Part shown: positions 31,827-40,665 of the stretch, one piece after another | Position numbering within the stretch: the stretch's first letter is position 1 | How the letters are laid out: every line of letters starts with the position of its first letter | IMG/VR virus record: IMGVR_UViG_2660238524_000003 | From: a virus | Lineage: Duplodnaviria > Heunggongvirae > Uroviricota > Caudoviricetes | Reading direction: 5' to 3' (one strand) | DNA length: 40,665 nt | Position numbers and translations under genes: made by a program | Notes under the pieces: generated by a model | What the model saw: the letters and a program-made list of their open reading frames with translations, nothing else | Told to the model about the DNA's origin: nothing | The model's database searches: none

Positions 31827-34582
31827 TTTCCACTGGTCAGGCCACCCCGCAGCAGGTCTGCTTTGCGGCTGGCGCGTTCAGTGGTTTCACTGATTCTCTG
31901 TGCGTGCTCTGCGTCGCGGATGGCGCGCAGCATGTCAGAAAGCACGGTAACGGGTGTTTTCATGGTGTTCTGGCCCTGCTGAAGTGTGGATGCCAGGCGT
32001 GCGGCGGCTTCAGGGTCTGATGCCCCCAGCTGTGCCAGATAGCTGGCGACCGGGTTATGGCGGATCTCCGTGCTGCTTACGCCATGATTACGGCTCAGGC
32101 GCTGCCAGAGCTGCGTGATTCGGCTGTCCGGGCGGGTATCCGGTTTGCGTACAATTTCAAATCCCTGCGGTGCAATGATGCTGCCGTCAACGTACAGACT
32201 GCCGCCCCGTAACAGGTGCTGCATCTGTTGTTCACCGATATGCAGGCCGAGAGATTCAGCAGACTCCCGCCATTCTTTAGCGAGTAATTCGTGGTTATCA
32301 GGCAAAGGCCGCTGCTGTTTGCGGCTCTGTGTCCAGCTCTGCATTTCATCGCTGCTGTTTTTTGCCTGTTTGTCACGAAGCGAACGCATCAGCGCCCGGC
32401 GTTCGTGTCGTTTCAGTGAGCGCATCCATTCGTTCACTTCAACGCCGTCAGGGAGCTGCGGCCACGGTGCTGGCCGTTCTTCCGGCTGTTCTGTCCCGTT
32501 GTTGTCCGTTTCCTGTACACGGGGACAGTTATTGCCACGAGTCCAAGGGGCGGCAGGGCCGCCCTGAAGGTCAAAACCATTTTCGCGGGCGCTGTCTTCC
32601 GCTTCCGGTTTACGTCTTACCAGCTTCCAGTTATCCGGATGCGTGCACACACGGGAGGATTCCCCGATGAGTGGTGACCAGATCCCGTAAATCTGTACGC
32701 TCTGTTCGCCGTAATCGTTCAGCTCATCTGCGAGGTCGTAGGCGGTGCGAATCAGGTAGTCCTTGCGTGGAACAAGCACGCCACCCTGTTTTTCAATGTA
32801 GGTGGCAAAACACCCGGCATCGGCGGCAGCGAGTACCGCATCCATTGCATCATCTTTCAGCCGTTGCGGGCCTTCCGGATTGCGTGCCATCTGGCTGGCA
32901 AGGCGGCGCAGTTCACGCCACACCTGACGGGAGGGGATGCCAAAGAACTGGAACTGACGGACCCGGTGAAGGCGCGCCCAGCCGATGGCGCGCTCCACGC
33001 TCTCGGCCATTGATTTTCCGGTTTCGTGGTCCACGCGTGGCTTGCCCGTTTTCGGGTCGATGCCATCCACGGCGCGGCTGTCCAGGTTCTTTCCGATGTA
33101 GGTGGCGATGTAGCTGGTTGGCGTGCCTTTTGAGCCGTCGACATACTCCACCTTAAAGCGCGGAGTAATATCATTGCCCAGCTCGTGGCGGTCTTCCTGA
33201 ATGGCAATATCGCGGGTATGGGACACAATGGTGTCGATTTCTTCCGGATGTGCAAAGACCATCATATGCCAGTGCACGGTGCCGTCATGATGAGGCTCCA
33301 CCGTGCGGATGCCATACCAGCGCAGGCCGTCGCGGTTCAGTTTTTTGCGGACCGCCGCAAAAAACGTGTTAACCAGGTAATCGCTGGAGTCGCGCATTGT
33401 GGCCCCGTTCCATTTGGGATTCGGATGACCGTTCTCCGTTGTGGCGTGGTATTTTGACGGGCAGGTGACAGTCAGAAACACCGCTTTGTCGCCACGGGCT
33501 TCGGCCAGAAGTTCCAGTCCCTTCATGGTGGCCATCATTTCTGCCTTACGGTGAACCGGGTTACTTACTCCCGCGTAATACACTGTCTCGAGATCAATCG
33601 TGAACCCGTCTTCATTTTCCAGCATGAAACTTTTCAGGAAATCGCGTGTTTTCTCGCGCTGTGCGCGAAACTCGCTTAACGCGTCCTGGCTCAGATAGGG
33701 TGATGTTTTTCTGGAAACCAGACAGGCGGCGCGGAGTTGTTCTTCTCTCCACTCGCAACGTAACAGCCACAGTTTGCGTTTCCACCATTCCGCACAGGTC
33801 AGGCGAAGGATTGCGCCCGGCAGCAGCTCCGTGTCCGGTTCGTTCCTCCGGTCTTTGTCTGTTGTCAGTGCGTCATAATGTGGAGGCATGGCGTGCAGGT
33901 GTAACGCCATGCGGGCCAGCATCTGATACGCCTTCAGGGTTACATCCATGGTCAGCTCGCCATCGGTCGCGCCAAAGCCATCGCAGAGTTTTTCGAAGGT
34001 GCTGCTGAACATCGCCGCCGTCATGGTGGCCAGCGTCTGTATCTGGTGTTTGTTGAGCTGCGGCAGGTAAAGCAAATCGTCCAGGCGTTCGCGTCCGGCA
34101 AGGGAGCGATAACCCGGTGTCAGCCAGCGTCCGTCAGTGCTATCCAGACGTTCGAATATTTTGCGCAGGGTTCCGCGTGCATAGCGTTCCGCCTGCCAGC
34201 TCTTTTTGCCTTTCCGGCGATCGGCTTCCTGTTTTTTGCGCAGGAAGGAGAGGTGGCGAATAAGCGGATCGCGCAGATAGGACGGCAGCAGGCGCAGCGA
34301 GGCCATGGCTTCATCCACCGCGCCACGTGCCTGTTTTCTGGCGTCTCCTGCCAGTGTGATGGTTTTGTCCTGTTTTTCCTGTGCGTCCAGGCTTTTATTA
34401 ATCAGGTTGCCCAGCGGCGTGGCTGAGAACGCCGCATCAGCCATTTCCTGGCGGCGCTCGTTCTCTGCCCGGTAGGCATCCAGCCAGGAGGAAAGCGCGG
34501 ATTCAGGAGCGGGGATCCCCGTTCCTTCACGCCCCACTGCGTGGCGCGGTTGTTGCCAGTCCCTGAGGTACTCTGCCGTCAT
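31760..34582 (-). CDS. replication initiation endonuclease A (rolling-circle)
   Basis: 940 aa; H-x-H metal motif (HWHMMVF) and position as in P2-like phages. Confidence 0.88.
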   Translation of the reverse strand: MTAEYLRDWQQPRHAVGREGTGIPAPESALSSWLDAYRAENERRQEMADAAFSATPLGNLINKSLDAQEKQDKTITLAGDARKQARGAVDEAMASLRLLPSYLRDPLIRHLSFLRKKQEADRRKGKKSWQAERYARGTLRKIFERLDSTDGRWLTPGYRSLAGRERLDDLLYLPQLNKHQIQTLATMTAAMFSSTFEKLCDGFGATDGELTMDVTLKAYQMLARMALHLHAMPPHYDALTTDKDRRNEPDTELLPGAILRLTCAEWWKRKLWLLRCEWREEQLRAACLVSRKTSPYLSQDALSEFRAQREKTRDFLKSFMLENEDGFTIDLETVYYAGVSNPVHRKAEMMATMKGLELLAEARGDKAVFLTVTCPSKYHATTENGHPNPKWNGATMRDSSDYLVNTFFAAVRKKLNRDGLRWYGIRTVEPHHDGTVHWHMMVFAHPEEIDTIVSHTRDIAIQEDRHELGNDITPRFKVEYVDGSKGTPTSYIATYIGKNLDSRAVDGIDPKTGKPRVDHETGKSMAESVERAIGWARLHRVRQFQFFGIPSRQVWRELRRLASQMARNPEGPQRLKDDAMDAVLAAADAGCFATYIEKQGGVLVPRKDYLIRTAYDLADELNDYGEQSVQIYGIWSPLIGESSRVCTHPDNWKLVRRKPEAEDSARENGFDLQGGPAAPWTRGNNCPRVQETDNNGTEQPEERPAPWPQLPDGVEVNEWMRSLKRHERRALMRSLRDKQAKNSSDEMQSWTQSRKQQRPLPDNHELLAKEWRESAESLGLHIGEQQMQHLLRGGSLYVDGSIIAPQGFEIVRKPDTRPDSRITQLWQRLSRNHGVSSTEIRHNPVASYLAQLGASDPEAAARLASTLQQGQNTMKTPVTVLSDMLRAIRDAEHAQRISETTERASRKADLLRGGLTSGNKKQTETGLTNPVNEQKTRSDI

Positions 34583-34588
34583 AGTGAT

Positions 34589-34954
34589 TTACTTCGTCAT
34601 GCCATTCAGGGTGTCGCGGCAGACTGTAGCCAGCCGCTGAATTTCCAGCACGGTGTCTTCTGTGTCGGCATGGCGATGTGTGATGCGGATGCTGTCGGCA
34701 ATCACATCGACGATTGCAGAGGATGGGCGCTGGTAAATGCCAATAACGGACGGGGTGCCACCTTCAATGCGGTAAAGCCTGTAATTTCCCTCGTGGCTGT
34801 CAATCATGTAGCGACCATCAATAACAATCTTTCCGTCAGCGAGCTGCGGTACAGGCAGGGATTTCAGGTACATGTCATAACGATCACGCACGCGAGCGGC
34901 AAGATCACGTTCTGTATTGAGCAGGTATTCAAGAAAGTCGTTGGCGAGAATCAT
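34589..34954 (-). CDS. hypothetical early protein
   Basis: 121 aa, AAGAGGA RBS, immediately upstream of A. Confidence 0.55.
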   Translation of the reverse strand: MILANDFLEYLLNTERDLAARVRDRYDMYLKSLPVPQLADGKIVIDGRYMIDSHEGNYRLYRIEGGTPSVIGIYQRPSSAIVDVIADSIRITHRHADTEDTVLEIQRLATVCRDTLNGMTK

Positions 34955-35026
34955 TGCGGCAATCCTCTTGTTACAGATGTGCGAAGGCCTCCCGCCGCAA
35001 GGTGCAGGAAAGGCCCGGAACAGGAA

Positions 35027-35257
35027 TTAATGGAGTTTGTTTTGCTGCTGGATGAGCTGTTGAAGCTCGTGCAGATCATCCGCCAGATAGCTGAAAACAG
35101 AGGCGGAATAAATGTTTGATAGTGCGTGGCTGCGCTCATGCAGCATATTGATGTGCATGATTTGCGCGACGCGTGATGCGCGGGAAAGTCTGCGGTTGAT
35201 TTCAGTCTGGATGTGACGACGCTCCGCGATAGCGCGGTGCTGTTTGCGGTTTGCCAT
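35027..35257 (-). CDS. hypothetical early protein (basic, 76 aa)
   Basis: ORF with AAGGGG-type RBS embedded in the adjacent repeat element. Confidence 0.5.
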   Translation of the reverse strand: MANRKQHRAIAERRHIQTEINRRLSRASRVAQIMHINMLHERSHALSNIYSASVFSYLADDLHELQQLIQQQNKLH

Positions 35258-35579
35258 GGTGTGGCCCCTTGTGTAGTAAGTTGTGAAAACTCACCATCCA
35301 GAGCTGCGAAACTGTGGGTGGCGAGACGTACGAGGTTCGCAGTACCGGCTACACAAGAACCCGGCCCGACCGAAGTCGGCCCCGTACGCCCCGCCATAAT
35401 TCTGACGCGAAAAAAACGTGGCAATACAGTACGCACAAAAAAACCGCTGGCGCGGTTGTGCGCTTGTGTAGTCAGCAGGCTGCGAAACCCGGCACCCGTT
35501 TTATGAGGTGCAGCGGAAATGTAACCTGACTGATTGCGGCATGGCAAGCGGTTTTTTTGTGTGTGCATGCTCTGGTTTC
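35258..35579 (-). ncRNA. structured non-coding element with nested complementary repeats
   Basis: About 320 bp without a credible ORF. CTTGTGTAG and GCTGCGAA(A)C each occur twice direct (35268/35463; 35303/35479) and once inverted (35349-35357; 35335-35342). Confidence 0.4.
35433..35457 (-). terminator. intra-operon rho-independent terminator
   Basis: aaccgc-tggc-gcggtt hairpin followed on the - strand by UUUUUUU. Confidence 0.6.
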
Positions 35580-35879
35580 TTACTGGTTCAGAAAAAAATC
35601 AAAAACCTTGTCAATACGTTGCAGCAGCTCTTGCTGTATTGCTTCCGGCGTTTCCGGTTCGCCTGGCACCTCCAATGTCGCGCAGAAATCAGCGATTTCA
35701 TGATGGAGCGTCAGGCGAATGGCAGGAGCCGTGGTTCTGGCGTGCTCCAGCTCATCCAGCAATGCCAGCGCAGCAGACGGCGAGAGCATTGCGCGAAATG
35801 CCAGTAATTTTTGAGGTGTTGCCATTCGTTGCAGGGCAAATGCCAGTTCGCGTAGCTTCTGGTGGTTGATGGTGCTCAT
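35580..35879 (-). CDS. hypothetical early protein
   Basis: 99 aa; ATGA overlap with upstream gene. Confidence 0.55.
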   Translation of the reverse strand: MSTINHQKLRELAFALQRMATPQKLLAFRAMLSPSAALALLDELEHARTTAPAIRLTLHHEIADFCATLEVPGEPETPEAIQQELLQRIDKVFDFFLNQ

Positions 35880-36142
35880 GTTCTGGCTTCCTTCAGTAGC
35901 TGGTTAAACATGTGAGTAAGTGGATTGCTACACCCGAACGGCATCGGGTTTACGTGGTAAGAAGCCTGGCCTCCAGTTTTGCGAGCGCGACCACCTGTGC
36001 TGCGGTTTGTTCTGATGACTAAGCCGCCGCGCCAAAGTTGGCGTAACTCAGCATTAATGGCTGTGGTTGGAGTATTCAGTGCTGCGGCGATCTCTCCGCC
36101 GCTACACCCCGGATGAGTAGCGATGTAGTCCAGAATGGTCAT
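35876..36142 (-). CDS. hypothetical small protein, possible winged-helix DNA binding
   Basis: 88 aa; ...GCSGGEIAAALNTPTTAINAELRQL... helix-turn-helix-like; ATGA coupling. Confidence 0.5.
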   Translation of the reverse strand: MTILDYIATHPGCSGGEIAAALNTPTTAINAELRQLWRGGLVIRTNRSTGGRARKTGGQASYHVNPMPFGCSNPLTHMFNQLLKEART

Positions 36143-36342
36143 CTGCGTGGCTCCTGTACCTGTCGGATAAGGTTTACCCGCGCCACATTAGTGGCGCAGA
36201 AGTAAGTGCCGTCAGTGAGGTAGATGTGGTGTGCATCCTTTTCCGAACGATGTTTGTCGATAGTGGTAATCAGGCGTTCGTCGACCTCGTATTCGCGCCC
36301 TCTGGAGGTAAAGCGAACGACGGGAAAATGCTTAATTGCCAT
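36139..36342 (-). CDS. hypothetical early protein
   Basis: 67 aa; translationally coupled. Confidence 0.5.
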   Translation of the reverse strand: MAIKHFPVVRFTSRGREYEVDERLITTIDKHRSEKDAHHIYLTDGTYFCATNVARVNLIRQVQEPRR

Positions 36343-36365
36343 TGCGCCCCCTTTGTCCAGTAACT

Positions 36366-36776
36366 CTATGCGTTAAATACGGTGCACTGTGCGTCATCAA
36401 TGAATGCGACTTGAGAGCGCTCTATCAGGCGGAGATTTGTCAGAATTTCTGATTCCCTTATGGGGTGAGGAGTGATCAGGTATTTATCCTGTAACCCGGC
36501 GATAATGGTGTATCGCTGTAGCTCCGAGCCAATTGTGTAAATAAGGCGTCCGGTGTTAGACAAATCCAGTCCGGTGACTGGTTGTGTTCTGAGAACCGCC
36601 AGTTCAGCATCCTGTTTTGCGATAATTTCGGCTGCTTCTGCCGTGACTCTTGCGACTATCAGTGTGTGGGTTGCGACGTCCATATGATTATTTGCTATGG
36701 CTTTTTTCGCTACTTCGTTTTCTGTCTTTGAAATTTCTTTCAGTGCTCTGATGATACCTTCTTCTTTTGCGTGCAT
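36366..36776 (-). CDS. hypothetical early protein
   Basis: 136 aa ORF on early-operon strand. Confidence 0.5.
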   Translation of the reverse strand: MHAKEEGIIRALKEISKTENEVAKKAIANNHMDVATHTLIVARVTAEAAEIIAKQDAELAVLRTQPVTGLDLSNTGRLIYTIGSELQRYTIIAGLQDKYLITPHPIRESEILTNLRLIERSQVAFIDDAQCTVFNA

Positions 36777-36869
36777 TTTTGTATCTCCGTTATTTGCGTG
36801 TGCGAATACCTCCGTTAATACGGATGGTTTTCACGTTTTCTTATTTAATTTGATGTTTTATTTGTATCG

Positions 36870-36983
36870 TTATTCACCAGTGAAAAAACGTTCAATCTTT
36901 TTTACTGAATGAATAATTCGCACAATGCCAATTGCGCAGACCACTGAAATAATCAGAACAATCCATGACATAAATATACTCAT
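36870..36983 (-). CDS. 37-aa hydrophobic peptide (MSIFMSWIVLIISVVCAIGIVRIIHSVKKIERFFTGE)
   Basis: Read manually; ATG overlaps the stop of the upstream gene (ATGA); single predicted TM helix. Below track cutoff. Confidence 0.3.
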   Translation of the reverse strand: MSIFMSWIVLIISVVCAIGIVRIIHSVKKIERFFTGE

Positions 36984-37222
36984 GCGATATTCCCCAGCTT
37001 ATACGGTTCAATATGTTCCCCGCATTCTGCGGCACAGATCAGCTCGGAAAGTTCGTTAAGTGCATCCAGATCATCAGCGTAAAAAGCCACGTCATACAGA
37101 CTCCGGATTGCCCTGGTCAATGAGTCACGGGCTGCACGTTCAGCATGAGCGCCTGATGCACTTAAGCGAAAATAAAAACGCTCAAGTGCTTTGTTAATGA
37201 GAGTTTTATATTCTTTGCCCAT
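36980..37222 (-). CDS. hypothetical early protein
   Basis: 80 aa from ATG 37222 (AAAGGG RBS); track ORF extends to 37273. Confidence 0.5.
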   Translation of the reverse strand: MGKEYKTLINKALERFYFRLSASGAHAERAARDSLTRAIRSLYDVAFYADDLDALNELSELICAAECGEHIEPYKLGNIA

Positions 37223-37233
37223 CGCAACGCCCT

Positions 37234-37512
37234 TTAATCTGCTTTCTGAATTTCTGCTTCTGAATCCATACAAATAATTTCGATATAGGGTTCATCGCCA
37301 TTAGTCTTACGTGCTTTTTCCGCTTCGCTAATGATTTCGTGTACAGTCTGGTACGGAAGTTCTACGGTCAGGCGCGTGCCGTTCAGATAAACGTAAGTAG
37401 CTGCATTTTTTTCGGATGGAACAACTCCGTCAATGGCTGATGCGCGTAATAACAGTTCACCGCGAAAATCAATAAAACGGATAAATACACCTTGTGCATG
37501 CTCTTTGGTCAT
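37234..37512 (-). CDS. hypothetical early protein
   Basis: 92 aa from ATG 37512 (AGGTG RBS). Confidence 0.5.
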   Translation of the reverse strand: MTKEHAQGVFIRFIDFRGELLLRASAIDGVVPSEKNAATYVYLNGTRLTVELPYQTVHEIISEAEKARKTNGDEPYIEIICMDSEAEIQKAD

Positions 37513-37522
37513 AAAGCACCTG

Positions 37523-37873
37523 TTATAAATCAGCCTGTTTAATAAAACTTTGCCCGTGAAGCAGACGATCAACCGTGCGAAGTGCTTCGTATAATGTGAA
37601 ATCCTGCCCGAACTGATTGTCGCCGTTGCTCAGTGCAAAAATGCGGTTTCCGGTAAATGGGTTGCGCTGGCATCTGTGAACCACGATTCCTGCTTTTTCA
37701 ATCAGCCAAGTGTGTTCACCAATTTGTTTTACTGGGTAGCCATCCGGCGTTGCGTGTGTTTCGCTCAGGCTGTAGCGAGAGTTGCTACGTGATGCACTGG
37801 TAGCGAAACGGTTAGCATGGCGTTCCGCACCGTTGCGGAAGCGCTGCTGTGAAGAATTGCGCTGTAGTTTCAT
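37523..37873 (-). CDS. hypothetical early protein
   Basis: 116 aa ORF. Confidence 0.5.
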   Translation of the reverse strand: MKLQRNSSQQRFRNGAERHANRFATSASRSNSRYSLSETHATPDGYPVKQIGEHTWLIEKAGIVVHRCQRNPFTGNRIFALSNGDNQFGQDFTLYEALRTVDRLLHGQSFIKQADL

Positions 37874-38010
37874 ATTAAAACTCTGTACCTTCGGTAAGGT
37901 GTACTCGTGTCACCTTGTATTGATTTGTGGTATTTTTTTTGTGTGTCTAGGACTTGGACTGGCCGGTTCAGGTCCTGGCTTATGTTTAATTAAATTGTTA
38001 AGAGGTTTTC

Positions 38011-38202
38011 ATGTCAGAAGATAAAAAAGTTGTTAATTTGTTGAGTGAACTTAGTGCTGCTCTGGATAACATTAACCCTCCCAGGGTAAAAACGACGGGT
38101 GATAAAGACGCATTAAACACAGAGATTCATATATTACTGGCGTTAGTAACTGACAAAATTCAGCGTAAATACCCACCTGTCACACAACTGGTTGATTTTT
38201 AA
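38011..38202 (+). CDS. hypothetical 63-aa protein on the opposite strand
   Basis: AAGAGG RBS 6 nt upstream of ATG; hairpin right after its stop. Confidence 0.45.
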   Translation: MSEDKKVVNLLSELSAALDNINPPRVKTTGDKDALNTEIHILLALVTDKIQRKYPPVTQLVDF

Positions 38203-38208
38203 TTTGAT

Positions 38209-38631
38209 TTATGCCGGGCTGCTCCCGGCATCTTCTAGCTGCCATAATGTCTCGTCACCTGATAGAGCAAAACGAAATGAGTGAAGTATATCCCCCCGAG
38301 AGAAGCTCACGGCTACAGCTGCGGGAAAGTCAAATATAATCCCACCTTCATTTTTAAAACGATTACGCAATTGATAGGCTATCGGTTTGATTTGTGCAGG
38401 AAGAGTATCTATATCTCTTCCATTGACAACAGAATCTTTGTTTTCAAGTACTGATTTAGCGATTAGATATAGATGCCAGTAACTGGTTACAATTGTTACT
38501 CCTGTGATGTGTCGTAAATTAATTGCAATTCGTCCGTTATTATGTTTTTCCGCAAGGTATTTCAGGTTATCAATTAATGCTTGGTCATTTTTTGAAATAG
38601 TTATTGTGAAATCTGACGTGTTTGTTTTCAT
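38209..38631 (-). CDS. hypothetical early protein
   Basis: 140 aa from ATG 38631 (GAGG RBS); the longer track ORF to 38874 overlaps the upstream gene out of frame. Confidence 0.45.
   Translation of the reverse strand: MKTNTSDFTITISKNDQALIDNLKYLAEKHNNGRIAINLRHITGVTIVTSYWHLYLIAKSVLENKDSVVNGRDIDTLPAQIKPIAYQLRNRFKNEGGIIFDFPAAVAVSFSRGDILHSFRFALSGDETLWQLEDAGSSPA
38211..38231. terminator. hairpin between convergent genes
   Basis: atgccggg-ctgct-cccggcat 8-bp stem; weak U tracts. Confidence 0.35.
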
Positions 38632-38635
38632 ACGA

Positions 38636-39157
38636 TTAGTTGCCTCTGTTGTTTCTGAGTTGGTCCAGTTTTGAGCTTCTGCCTGTATAAACTCGCTTAC
38701 CGTTAATGGTCTGGCAGTCTTCTTTATTAGCTGGAGAGAACTTCCTTTTCTGGCGGTCATACGTCCAGTAACTTTTCCAGTTGTGCCATTCTGGGGGCTC
38801 GTGCTCTGGTAGCTCATCAGCCAACTTGTCCCACTCTTTGGCGTTAAACCACCATACTCCGTCTGAGTTTTCATCTTCCGGGTTTGTGCGCGTCTTGTGT
38901 CCCGGCATTTGACCGCGATGAATGGCTACGCGCAGTGCAGATTTTGTTAGCCCAATATATGCCGCGCCTTTTTCCAGAGAGCAAAGCCCGGCGATCGGAC
39001 CATCCAGCCGCAAAGTCGCTCCTTTTTTGTAGGAACGCTTTTTCTTGTTTTCTTCGTGCTCGTCGTCGTTGGCGGCATCAATGGATCCGCTGAGTGCGTC
39101 ACTTTCCTGAAGTGGTTGGTGGTCAGATAACTCTTTATCGGCAATGAAGTCCCGCAT
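38636..39157 (-). CDS. first early-operon gene, possible Cox/Apl-like HTH regulator
   Basis: AAGAGGA RBS; helix-turn-helix-like segment (AAYIGLTKSALRVAIHRGQMPG); divergent from the repressor gene. Longer than P2 Cox, so function is inferred from position. Confidence 0.5.
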   Translation of the reverse strand: MRDFIADKELSDHQPLQESDALSGSIDAANDDEHEENKKKRSYKKGATLRLDGPIAGLCSLEKGAAYIGLTKSALRVAIHRGQMPGHKTRTNPEDENSDGVWWFNAKEWDKLADELPEHEPPEWHNWKSYWTYDRQKRKFSPANKEDCQTINGKRVYTGRSSKLDQLRNNRGN

Positions 39158-39216
39158 TTGTTATCCTCTTGCGTTGGTGCGCTTGTCGCGCCTTGTGATG
39201 GTTTGTTTTGGCTTGT

Positions 39217-39240
39217 AAAGATAACCAAAAGGTTATCTTT
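39217..39240. promoter_or_regulatory. operator-like palindrome in divergent promoter region
   Basis: AAAGATAACC-AAAA-GGTTATCTTT perfect 10-bp arms; additional GGTTATCTT half-site at 39264-39272. Confidence 0.55.
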
Positions 39241-39261
39241 GTGCGAGAGGTTAATACTCAA

Positions 39262-39603
39262 ATGGTTATCTTGTCAATAGACTACGCAAAAAAGTTACGT
39301 CAGATACGTAAGGCGGAAGGGTTAACACAAAAGCAGTTTGCGGATATTACTGGGTTGTCTTTGGCAACCATAAGGAATTACGAATCGGGGCAAAAGAACG
39401 CTAGAGCAAAAATCGTTGAGGCGGTTCTGCAAGTCGATCGCTTTGAAAAATACATGCTGTGGCTAATAAAAGATAAGACGCTACCTGTCGCCGGGCAGAT
39501 TGCTCCGGCTCTCTCTCTTGATGGATCTATTCAGTCGGAGGGCGATCAGGTTTCAATCGGTATTACCCAAAAATCACCCCGATCAGGCCGCAATGTTGGC
39601 TGA
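39262..39603 (+). CDS. immunity repressor, HTH XRE-family
   Basis: ...LRQIRKAEGLTQKQFADITGLSLATIRNYESGQ... helix-turn-helix; start ATG 39262 with GAGAGG RBS. Confidence 0.8.
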   Translation: MVILSIDYAKKLRQIRKAEGLTQKQFADITGLSLATIRNYESGQKNARAKIVEAVLQVDRFEKYMLWLIKDKTLPVAGQIAPALSLDGSIQSEGDQVSIGITQKSPRSGRNVG

Positions 39604-39672
39604 CTCTACACATTGAGCGAATTACATATCGCAAGGAGTGTTTAGTTAATTTATCCGTTGGAGGGGCTAATC

Positions 39673-40665
39673 ATGTCGATTAAGCAACTCAAAGACGGAC
39701 GTTATCAGGTCGATGTCAGACCGCAGGGGGCGGAAGGAAAGCGGATTCGAAAAATCTTTGCCCTGAAATCAAAGGCTCAGGAGTTTGAGAAGTATGTGTT
39801 ACAGAACTTTCATGACAAGCCATGGCAGGCTAAGCCAGCTGATCAGCGGCGATTATCAGAGCTGCTTGATGCGTGGTGGATGCTTGATGGGCGTAATCAG
39901 GCTTACGGGGATAGCTACAGGGTTAGGCTAGGGAAGGTTGTTCGTGAAATGGGAGATCCTCGCGCCAGTCAGATGACGCGAAAATTTATGCTTGAATATC
40001 GGTCAGAGAAATTACAGGCCGGATTAATGCCGTCCAGTATTAATCGTGACTTATGCGTACTGTCTACCATGTTCACGGTGCTGATTGAAGCTGAGGTCTT
40101 TCACAACGCGAACCCTGTACGCGGTATACGAAAACTGAAAGTTCAGAACACAGAGATGGCCTTTCTTTCTGATGATGAGATTGAACGGCTTCTTGAGCGA
40201 CTGGAGGGTGATGTGCGTCGTGTTGCCATTCTGTGTCTTTCTACTGGTGCCCGATGGAGTGAAGCATCGGAACTACGTGGAGAGCATATCGTTGGCAACC
40301 GGGTGACGTTCTTTAACACCAAAAACGGAAAATCCCGTTCGGTTCCTGTGGCGGATTCGGTCGTGCCTCTGATTAAAACCCGTCGAACGGGGTTATTGTA
40401 TCAGGTTGATTATCTGAAGTTCCGGGAGATTCTTCAGGAGGTGAAACCGGATTTGCCGAAGGGGCAGGCTACGCATGTCATGCGTCATACATTTGCCACA
40501 CACTTTATGATGAATGGCGGAAATATTGTTACGTTGCAACGAATCCTGGGGCACGCAACGATTCAGCAAACAATGACGTACGCTCATTTTTCGCCGGACT
40601 TTTTACTGGACGCGATCAACTTTAATCCGCTGGCTGAAAGTGTCCATAAACTGTCCATCGATTAG
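39673..40665 (+). CDS. int: tyrosine integrase (P2 Int-like)
   Basis: C-terminal catalytic region ...HVMRHTFATHF...LGHATIQQTMTYAHF...; start ATG 39673 with GGAGGGG RBS; stop at the last window bases. Confidence 0.9.
   Translation: MSIKQLKDGRYQVDVRPQGAEGKRIRKIFALKSKAQEFEKYVLQNFHDKPWQAKPADQRRLSELLDAWWMLDGRNQAYGDSYRVRLGKVVREMGDPRASQMTRKFMLEYRSEKLQAGLMPSSINRDLCVLSTMFTVLIEAEVFHNANPVRGIRKLKVQNTEMAFLSDDEIERLLERLEGDVRRVAILCLSTGARWSEASELRGEHIVGNRVTFFNTKNGKSRSVPVADSVVPLIKTRRTGLLYQVDYLKFREILQEVKPDLPKGQATHVMRHTFATHFMMNGGNIVTLQRILGHATIQQTMTYAHFSPDFLLDAINFNPLAESVHKLSID

Follow-up and report, generated by a model that had tools for sequence, protein, structure and literature searches.

Lysis in some small phages is brought about by a single peptide, such as phiX174 E or the 37-aa LysM of phage M, and these peptides demonstrate that one transmembrane (TM) helix by itself can suffice for the specific inhibition of an essential membrane enzyme. 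Other phage membrane-associated functions are directed at competing phages, T4 Imm being one of the phage proteins that block DNA injection by secondary phages. Among P2-related phages, the GenBank entry of phage 186 states for fil that 'overexpression blocks cell division' and annotates Dhr against host DNA replication. In Bacillus, the SPO1 early protein gp56, which has 79 residues and a single TM segment, blocks division via DivIC/FtsL (10.1101/2020.02.06.938217). HK97 gp15 is a YebO-family inner-membrane superinfection-exclusion moron that is located in the tail operon and has its own expression from the prophage (PMC3594210). Type I toxins are likewise small, with a single hydrophobic helix and a charged end, and some of them reside in prophages, while MgtS and MgtR are chromosomal proteins of about 30-50 aa that act by binding larger membrane proteins (PMC12648545).

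The DNA analysed here is a window of 40,665 nucleotides (IMG/VR record IMGVR_UViG_2660238524_000003), which is a P88-like (Xuanwuvirus, Peduoviridae, P2-related) E. coli prophage and whose positions 33300-40665 are 100% identical to one RefSeq-annotated prophage stretch. According to the annotation of that identical stretch, a gene for a 37-aa peptide, MSIFMSWIVLIISVVCAIGIVRIIHSVKKIERFFTGE, sits between a Cox-family gene and the gene for the replication endonuclease gpA, on the same strand as both, with the integrase and HTH repressor genes divergent, which confirms the early-operon location proposed in the initial annotation. The order on the peptide strand is Cox-family gene, DUF4761, a 92-aa gene, DUF4754, the peptide gene, six small genes (including MarR-like and Ead/Ea22-like genes) and gpA. 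ATGA overlaps are the norm among the genes of this operon, and its layout is of the P2/186 early lytic operon type, as read from the P2 and 186 GenBank entries. The peptide gene runs from an ATG at 36983-36981 to a TAA at 36872-36870 on the minus strand, the strand having been left out of the initial annotation. The stop codon of DUF4754, TGA at 36982-36980, shares bases with this ATG to form an ATGA, so that the reported overlap of the peptide start with the upstream stop proved correct (Table 1).

Table 1. Features of the peptide gene and its immediate surroundings; positions are those of the 40,665-nucleotide window.
Feature	Position	Strand	Basis or remark
37-aa small membrane protein gene (predicted), including stop codon	36870..36983	(-)	ORF list; annotation of identical DNA; frame-specific purifying selection
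ATGA overlap of DUF4754 stop codon and peptide start codon	36980..36983	(-)	Sequence; 68/68 unique variants and all divergent lineages
Shine-Dalgarno-like GGGGAA within DUF4754 coding sequence	36990..36995	(-)	7-12 nt upstream of the peptide ATG
Predicted hydrophobic transmembrane helix IFMSWIVLIISVVCAIGIVRII, codons 3-24	36912..36977	(-)	Hydropathy; helix model; conservation in divergent members
Basic C-terminal tail HSVKKIERFFTGE, codons 25-37, predicted cytoplasmic	36873..36911	(-)	Positive-inside rule (inference); motif conservation
T6 run, codons 32-34 of the peptide gene	36883..36888	(-)	Shortening to T5 produces the 45-aa variants, whose tail is unrelated
DUF4754 gene, 80 aa, obligate upstream partner of the peptide	36980..37222	(-)	Pfam PF15946, E=2.8e-54, full-length match
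AT-rich 93-nt spacer downstream of the peptide gene	36777..36869	(-)	Fast-evolving; mosaic junction with next gene

The peptide gene is not a new discovery, since it is already present as an annotation in RefSeq, GenBank and UniRef. The RefSeq entry, WP_000021715.1, on DNA 100% identical to the window, is named 'hypothetical protein'; the phage P88 ortholog, gp07 (YP_009113050.1), is 89% identical, occupies the same place after DUF4754 and is called 'membrane protein'; phage vB_EcoM-569R5 carries it as 'putative membrane protein', and UniRef A0A0C5EDM7 as 'Prophage membrane protein'. Hence the statement that the ORF fell below the ORF-track cutoff holds for the track used in the initial annotation but not for public annotation, where the gene had been called, and the implication that it had been overlooked does not stand. 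More than 1000 contigs carry the exact peptide sequence, and the 1.4 kb surrounding the gene are matched in 1398 of 5426 complete E. coli genomes as well as in several isolated P88-type phages. No mention of the WP and YP accessions, of DUF4754 or DUF4761, or of 186 fil and dhr was found in the literature searched, and the P88 papers, judged by title and abstract, have host range or prophage typing as their subject.

Because 80 ORFs of at least 20 aa occur within 4 kb in the ORF list, the length of this ORF alone is not above chance, and its conservation was therefore tested. The variant set comprised 68 unique DNA variants from 91 related loci at 83-100% identity; its IMG/VR loci were the best 80, all close relatives, and a scan of genome contigs added 2 loci. 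All 68 unique variants keep the ATGA and the ATG, and 67 have an open frame, which is also intact in the deep lineages described below, so that the conservation in related phages on which the initial annotation had made its proposal depend was indeed found. The encoded product has 37 aa in 59 variants, 45 aa in seven and 30 aa in one (phage Chuche), and one variant (phage 503458) carries a frameshift after codon 10. The 45-aa variants occur in different backgrounds, including the isolated phage PhiR44_2.

Variable sites in the peptide ORF are distributed over codon positions 1, 2 and 3 as 10, 4 and 16, and make up 31% of the ORF compared with 62% of the adjacent spacer. Pairwise dN/dS was 0.22 in the peptide frame versus 1.64 and 1.01 in the other sense frames, with DUF4754 as a positive control at 0.05. 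Tree-aware parsimony counted 47 synonymous events and 42 non-synonymous ones, the expected synonymous share being 23% (omega about 0.27, p=1.6e-9), and gave an omega of about 1 in the other two sense frames; these selection statistics rest on closely related, recombining sequences because the family is shallow, a phmmer search of 1.84 billion representative proteins having returned only 9 peptide clusters (50% identity). Two antisense frames had an omega of about 1.1, and the third reached 0.32 but has a stop in the consensus; its low value is mimicked constraint, as expected where wobble positions coincide. We conclude that the peptide ORF truly codes for a protein and is under purifying selection, which is seen in no other frame. 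A chance ORF was rejected on the grounds that frame, start and stop are kept and that the synonymous excess appears in that frame only. The 103-116-aa 'long DUF4754' proteins in databases, considered as possible fusions with the peptide, were rejected as frameshifted, N-extended or chimeric calls; most of them run into the third frame, which is open at 36892-37035, and in that frame omega is about 1 and stops occur.

These data also bear on the explanation that translation itself is what matters, with the ORF acting as a spacer or relay against polarity or tuning downstream expression, or simply present by chance. Relay ORFs do exist in the family, as the 186 GenBank entry notes that translation to the end of orf84 is necessary for gene A translation, and ATGA overlaps are usual in this operon. 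Yet the amino-acid sequence is constrained in this frame only (omega 0.22-0.27), and in deep lineages, with DNA identity of 62-74% and pS of 0.43-0.75, the peptide stays 49-65% identical. Moreover, the ORF is no ribosome relay into the next gene, because a 93-nt untranslated spacer follows it. We regard this explanation as scarcely credible.

Turning to expression signals, the Shine-Dalgarno-like site always contains the GGG, and in 67 variants this is followed by a G or an A. Divergent lineages carry purine-rich GAGGAG, AGGGGA or GAGGTGG at this position, despite differing DUF4754 residues there. No mRNA structure occluding the peptide start site was found (z=-0.71 versus shuffled sequence); as no structure sequesters the start, independent initiation at the Shine-Dalgarno-like site could occur, and the case for coupling is the overlap itself. 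Scans for promoters and terminators around the gene gave matches at chance level only, the one antisense promoter-like site lies within chance expectation (5 matches against 5.0 expected), no Rfam family overlaps the locus, and no terminator on the operon strand was found in the downstream spacer. Homology to phage P88 stops inside this spacer, at about 36796.

The description of the product as a hydrophobic single-TM peptide was well founded. Its Kyte-Doolittle 19-residue maximum of 2.83, starting from residue 3, is the highest among the window's 293 six-frame ORFs of 30-60 aa, and AlphaFold2 models it as one continuous helix over residues 2-34 (pLDDT 92). No charge lies N-terminal of the helix, and the C-flank carries R22, K28, K29 and R32 against E31 and E37; the tail is net-positive in every lineage, including the ERRK, KRHK, KHHK and PRRK ends of the 41-aa forms and the tail of a Salmonella version. 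The topology of membrane proteins is set by the positive-inside rule, and the sequence predicts an N-out/C-in orientation that would leave almost nothing exposed in the periplasm. By size and by the modelled helix, the peptide is thus predicted to be a small single-pass inner-membrane protein.

When compared with Pfam, PHROGs, NCBIfam, PADLOC and PDB sequences, the peptide gave nothing above noise. A Pfam scan at E<=1 returned only PET117 and DUF6007, both sub-threshold chance matches, and PADLOC on the neighbour genes returned one weak match at chance level. By sequence comparison, therefore, the peptide falls outside the Hok, Ldr, TisB, Ibs and Fst toxin families, the YebO/HK97 gp15 family and the catalogued division inhibitors. 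A possible beta-clamp-binding motif in the tail (IESLF, IERFF) was discarded as poor, having no Gln and being off register.

Host killing had been suggested for peptides of this kind. One way in which it might occur is non-specific membrane damage, in which a type I toxin- or holin-like peptide oligomerises and depolarises or permeabilises the inner membrane. The peptide resembles type I toxins (Hok/Gef, Ldr, TisB, Ibs, Fst; about 20-50 aa) in size, in its single hydrophobic helix and in its charged, basic C-terminal end (PMC12648545). It differs from them in that it matches none of these or other toxin families in Pfam and none in NCBIfam, and in that its gene is embedded in an operon through an ATGA. 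No Rfam antisense RNA family is found at the locus and the one antisense promoter-like site is at chance level, but an uncatalogued sRNA antitoxin may exist. This operon is read at lytic onset, when depolarisation would be expected to abort phage production. The position-specific conservation described below exceeds the need of a generic pore-former, and the window phage presumably has a separate late lysis system, an assumption that we base on the P2 family. Taken together, we judge a membrane-damaging toxin to be very unlikely. Such presumed late lysis genes, in a temperate dsDNA phage, would set this locus apart from the phages of phiX174 E and LysM.

A second suggestion in the initial annotation was inhibition of cell division, for which the 186 proteins are the nearest positional precedent. 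Like the peptide, Fil and Dhr are small accessory proteins encoded by overlapping genes in the early lytic operon downstream of the Cox/Apl switch gene. Their 19-residue hydropathy maxima, by contrast, are 1.26 (Fil) and 0.49 (Dhr) versus 2.83 for the peptide, and the conserved part of Fil is a soluble 47-residue N-terminal domain. Homology to 186 Fil (PF10893/DUF2724) was rejected, with no PF10893 match at E<=1 and an hhalign probability of 0.6%; the conserved Fil core, PSFASLL...HGWI...GKRWHP...LL.GL, corresponds to residues 1-47 and is missing from the peptide. A 6/10 identity between the Fil C-tail and the peptide was also set aside, since C-tails are not conserved among Fil proteins, which have at least two different ones, this being one of them. 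SPO1 gp56 resembles the peptide by analogy only, being likewise small, with one TM segment, and encoded among the clustered early genes of its phage; it acts on host inner-membrane machinery. It is unlike the peptide in having its TM segment at 37-59, an N-in/C-out topology, an essential extracellular C-terminus and a Gram-positive host (10.1101/2020.02.06.938217).

In the corresponding explanation, the peptide would bind FtsW, FtsI, FtsL, FtsB, FtsQ or FtsN and block septation during phage replication. The position of fil and dhr in the analogous operon and the gp56 precedent (10.1101/2020.02.06.938217) speak for it, and the conserved small-residue TM face would suit packing on a bitopic divisome protein. 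However, the peptide has neither homology to Fil nor its 47-residue core and matches no division-inhibitor family in Pfam, and the topology of gp56, with its essential C-terminus outside the cell, is opposite to that of a peptide predicted to expose almost nothing there. Division inhibition, an idea drawn from analogy, appears unlikely. On the broader suggestion, a host-killing or division-inhibitor role is plausible by analogy, and the sequence is equally compatible with toxicity or with a benign modulatory, anchoring or exclusion role.

We then considered deeper relatives of the peptide and of DUF4754. The peptide family is found in Escherichia, Citrobacter and Salmonella only. Divergent forms of 41 aa, at 49-65% identity, are MSVFLSWVILIISVLMAIGIMRIIEALKNIESLFTGEERRK, MNILISWLILILAIICAVGTMRIINGIKTIESLFTGDKRHK and MSIFMSWVVLVLAIIFAIGIVKIITVIKAIEALFTGDKHHK. 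Directly in front of every divergent peptide gene is a DUF4754 gene (80 aa), which it overlaps by the 4 nt of an ATGA; an SD-like purine run is present as well, and the locus is the early operon of a P2-like prophage. The DUF4754 copies at these loci are 27-41% identical to that of the window. The 92-aa neighbour, which is upstream of the pair in the window, is downstream at the divergent loci, and the flanking gene order changes. A profile search for DUF4754 relatives gave matches confined to Escherichia, Shigella and Salmonella and added two lineages, L105, with a 41-aa coupled ORF, and a Salmonella locus with an uncalled ATGA-coupled ORF of 50 aa (53 aa in a second copy, L104), MNCGIPVSVCFSWTVFALSIIAAIAIVRLWRAISKPDKSTDNVINKHNHK. 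The TM core of the Salmonella ORF aligns with the window peptide with a score of 65, versus 16-24 for control TM peptides (block-shuffle p about 2e-4), and its tail is unrelated. The ATGA overlap is present in lineages L094, L098, L099, L100, L103 and L105, of which L100 is a recombinant that joins a window-type DUF4754 to a divergent peptide type. Since every DUF4754 lineage found is followed by a coupled, predicted TM peptide while the neighbours shuffle, sequence comparison identifies DUF4754 and the peptide as a two-gene cassette conserved in every such lineage.

Within the helix, the residues conserved across the family are S6, W7, L10, [S/A]13, A17, G19 (Ala in the Salmonella version) and [R/K]22, and six family sequences, down to 49% identity, share 15 invariant positions, a pattern that argues for position-specific conservation rather than generic hydrophobicity, as does the pN of the peptide, lower than that of DUF4754 in most deep pairs. 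Most E. coli lineages retain the tail motif K..IE.[LF]FTG[DE]; L105 has a looser form of it (IKDLFTDE), and Salmonella and the frameshift variants have another tail altogether. From these alignments, the constant part of the peptide is the TM core and not the tail. Because L105 has only the looser form and Salmonella and the seven frameshift variants have lost the motif, a role of the tail, including DUF4754 binding, would not be universal.

The cassette raises the question of whether DUF4754 is the effector and the peptide no more than its tether or activator at the inner membrane, the coupling providing 1:1 synthesis. The AlphaFold2 model of DUF4754 is a helical hairpin with helices at 4-48 and 52-66 (pLDDT 89) and no membrane segment, and no fold match to it was found in PDB or BFVD at E<=0.001. 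A small soluble hairpin of this kind, without a membrane segment of its own, would accord with a membrane anchor, as would the strict linkage with a 4-nt overlap in all six lineages amid shuffled neighbours and the persistence of IE.[LF]FTG[DE] down to 49% identity. Against this, Salmonella and the T-run frameshift variants combine a different tail with an intact DUF4754, DUF4754 evolves faster than the peptide (pN in deep pairs 0.24-0.54 versus 0.19-0.27 for the peptide, which is slower in five of the six pairs), and natural recombinants mix the types. A tight co-evolving complex of the two proteins fits poorly with the much faster divergence of DUF4754, and we consider a pure anchor role rather unlikely, if a reading to be kept in mind.

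Superinfection exclusion offers a further explanation, in which the peptide would stop DNA injection by a secondary phage during lytic growth, by analogy with HK97 gp15. Both are small phage inner-membrane proteins of enterobacterial phages, the peptide by prediction; small inner-membrane phage proteins with such a function are documented, and the predicted membrane location and non-essentiality fit. Unlike gp15, which is a prophage-expressed YebO moron, the peptide has no match to YebO or to another Pfam family, and its gene has no flanking promoter or terminator above chance and is ATGA-embedded within the repressed early operon. Because the gene sits in a repressor-controlled early operon without a promoter of its own, the peptide would not protect the lysogen. 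An exclusion function of this type therefore seems, on present analogy, distinctly unlikely.

In summary, we are highly confident that the locus contains a real, selected gene which encodes a hydrophobic helix and which is joined to DUF4754 by a stop-start overlap in the early operon. For its function, the explanation that we prefer combines this selected gene and its early, coupled expression with specific helix packing against an inner-membrane target in an accessory role, and for this combination as a whole we hold the chances to be evenly balanced. As in P2 and 186 biology, the peptide would be made only upon derepression of the early promoter, at infection or induction. Initiation would be mainly by ribosomes terminating on DUF4754, which would yield roughly matched amounts of the two proteins. 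The peptide would then insert in the inner membrane with its tiny N-terminus outside and its basic tail in the cytoplasm, and its anatomy points to helix-helix packing via S6-W7, [S/A]13-xxx-A17, G19 and R/K22, that is, through a small-residue face with an interfacial Trp and Arg. The target would be an inner-membrane protein of host or phage, to which the peptide may bind together with cytoplasmic DUF4754 or as its tether, thereby adjusting host envelope or membrane physiology in early lytic development; division, wall synthesis, transport and DNA entry are the candidate processes. Such a role would be accessory and not essential, because the tail is altered (PhiR44_2, Chuche) or the ORF disrupted (503458) in isolated phages.

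Of the known systems, MgtS and MgtR provide the mode of action that we consider most likely for the peptide. They differ from it in being host stress-response genes with their own regulation and in having no sequence relationship to it; the mechanism proposed for the peptide is built on anatomy and analogy. In a stronger form of helix packing, the TM helix of the peptide would specifically inhibit an essential enzyme of the host inner membrane or a component of the divisome, and the peptide would form with DUF4754 a two-protein early host-takeover module; we consider this unlikely. If true, a temperate dsDNA phage would here encode the equivalent of the 'protein antibiotic' peptides known from small lytic phages.

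The present analysis extends the public annotation by the purifying selection on the gene, its invariant cassette with DUF4754, the uncalled Salmonella copy and the constant TM core, as well as by the result that neither Fil nor the type I toxins nor YebO are related to the peptide. Phage membrane proteins that are small and cross the bilayer once are well known as a class, and the practical value of these additions is modest, as they concern a common E. coli prophage gene outside curated families that is typical of prophage "dark matter". Should the peptide be merely a weak accessory factor, nothing would change. If it does have a specific essential membrane target, it would provide a compact tool or antibacterial lead as well as a function for DUF4754, and an inhibitor of this kind would be present in the prophages of roughly one in four complete E. 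coli genomes.

The 37-aa membrane peptide gene contains a T6 homopolymer at codons 32-34 (window 36883-36888, minus strand), which is T5 in 7 of the 68 unique variants of the region, and this replaces the conserved FTGE end of the peptide with an unrelated 12-residue tail. The sequences downstream of the run differ among the T5 variants, and the change from T6 to T5 could have arisen repeatedly by slippage, or it could be an old polymorphism that recombination has spread. A second open frame of 47 aa overlaps the gene pair (see the table), and no selection on it was seen (omega ~1). Many of the 103-116-aa database proteins designated 'DUF4754' were found to be frameshifted reads that enter this second frame.

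Features of the early operon and of related loci
Feature	Location	Strand	Remarks
Second open frame, 47 aa	36892-37035	-	Overlaps most of the peptide ORF as well as the terminal part of DUF4754
136-aa gene, phrog_9338	36366-36776	-	Next gene directly downstream of the peptide
isrK Hfq-binding RNA (RF01394)	35437-35511	-	Rfam gathering-level match, 65 bits
C4 antisense RNA (RF01695)	35314-35401	-	Rfam gathering-level match, 83 bits
Other very small hydrophobic ORFs	L087 398-505; L094 3039-3149; L098 1522-1611		Located between cox and DUF4761 in related P88-type early operons
Unannotated ORF, 50 or 53 aa	L103 3240-3392 (Salmonella enterica CP191473.1) and L104		ATGA-coupled to DUF4754

Phage P88 itself lacks the 136-aa gene, and because homology between the window and P88 ends at approximately 36796, within the AT-rich spacer that follows the peptide, this spacer is a mosaic recombination junction. 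The stretch carrying the C4 and isrK matches resembles a c4/ant-like module for immunity or antirepression, in the style of P1/P7, inside a P2-like prophage. Both matches lie within the early operon, with a 76-aa ORF of the 'derepression' type (35027-35257) on one side and an Ead/Ea22-like gene on the other.

Some genomes (E. coli matches H1-H4) harbor an IS1 insertion in the part of the early region that surrounds the peptide gene, and one predicted protein (P0060) displayed both IS1 transposase and DUF4754 Pfam matches. In locus L100 (GCA_900536625.1, 1-1795), a Mu-type transposase gene (HTH_Tnp_Mu_1, Mu-transpos_C) takes the place of integrase, repressor and cox and precedes a gpA-type early region together with the genes for DUF4761, DUF4754 and the peptide, an arrangement that could represent a hybrid or an adjacent element; here, a window-type DUF4754 is paired with a divergent peptide type. 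A DUF4754 gene with 98% identity to the E. coli prophage version was present in a contig labelled Vagococcus sp. WN89Y (NZ_JBQPOM010000071.1), an assembly that is likely contaminated or mislabelled. The attributed host, Vagococcus, is Gram-positive.

The Salmonella ORF of L103 and L104 is a divergent homolog of the 37-aa peptide that was overlooked by gene callers. The hydrophobic ORFs between cox and DUF4761 include a 35/36-aa family (MCGMDKLDLMLIVILSINFGYLLSGAILMCGGKRK and MCDLSKAELIAIILFAIDFGFLLSGAILLPAINRKN) and a single 29-aa ORF (MGSILFIITAFFISGFFMGRLYERNQKIR), which showed no relation to the 37-aa peptide and are not present in the window. Small TM peptides appear to recur in P88-type early operons.
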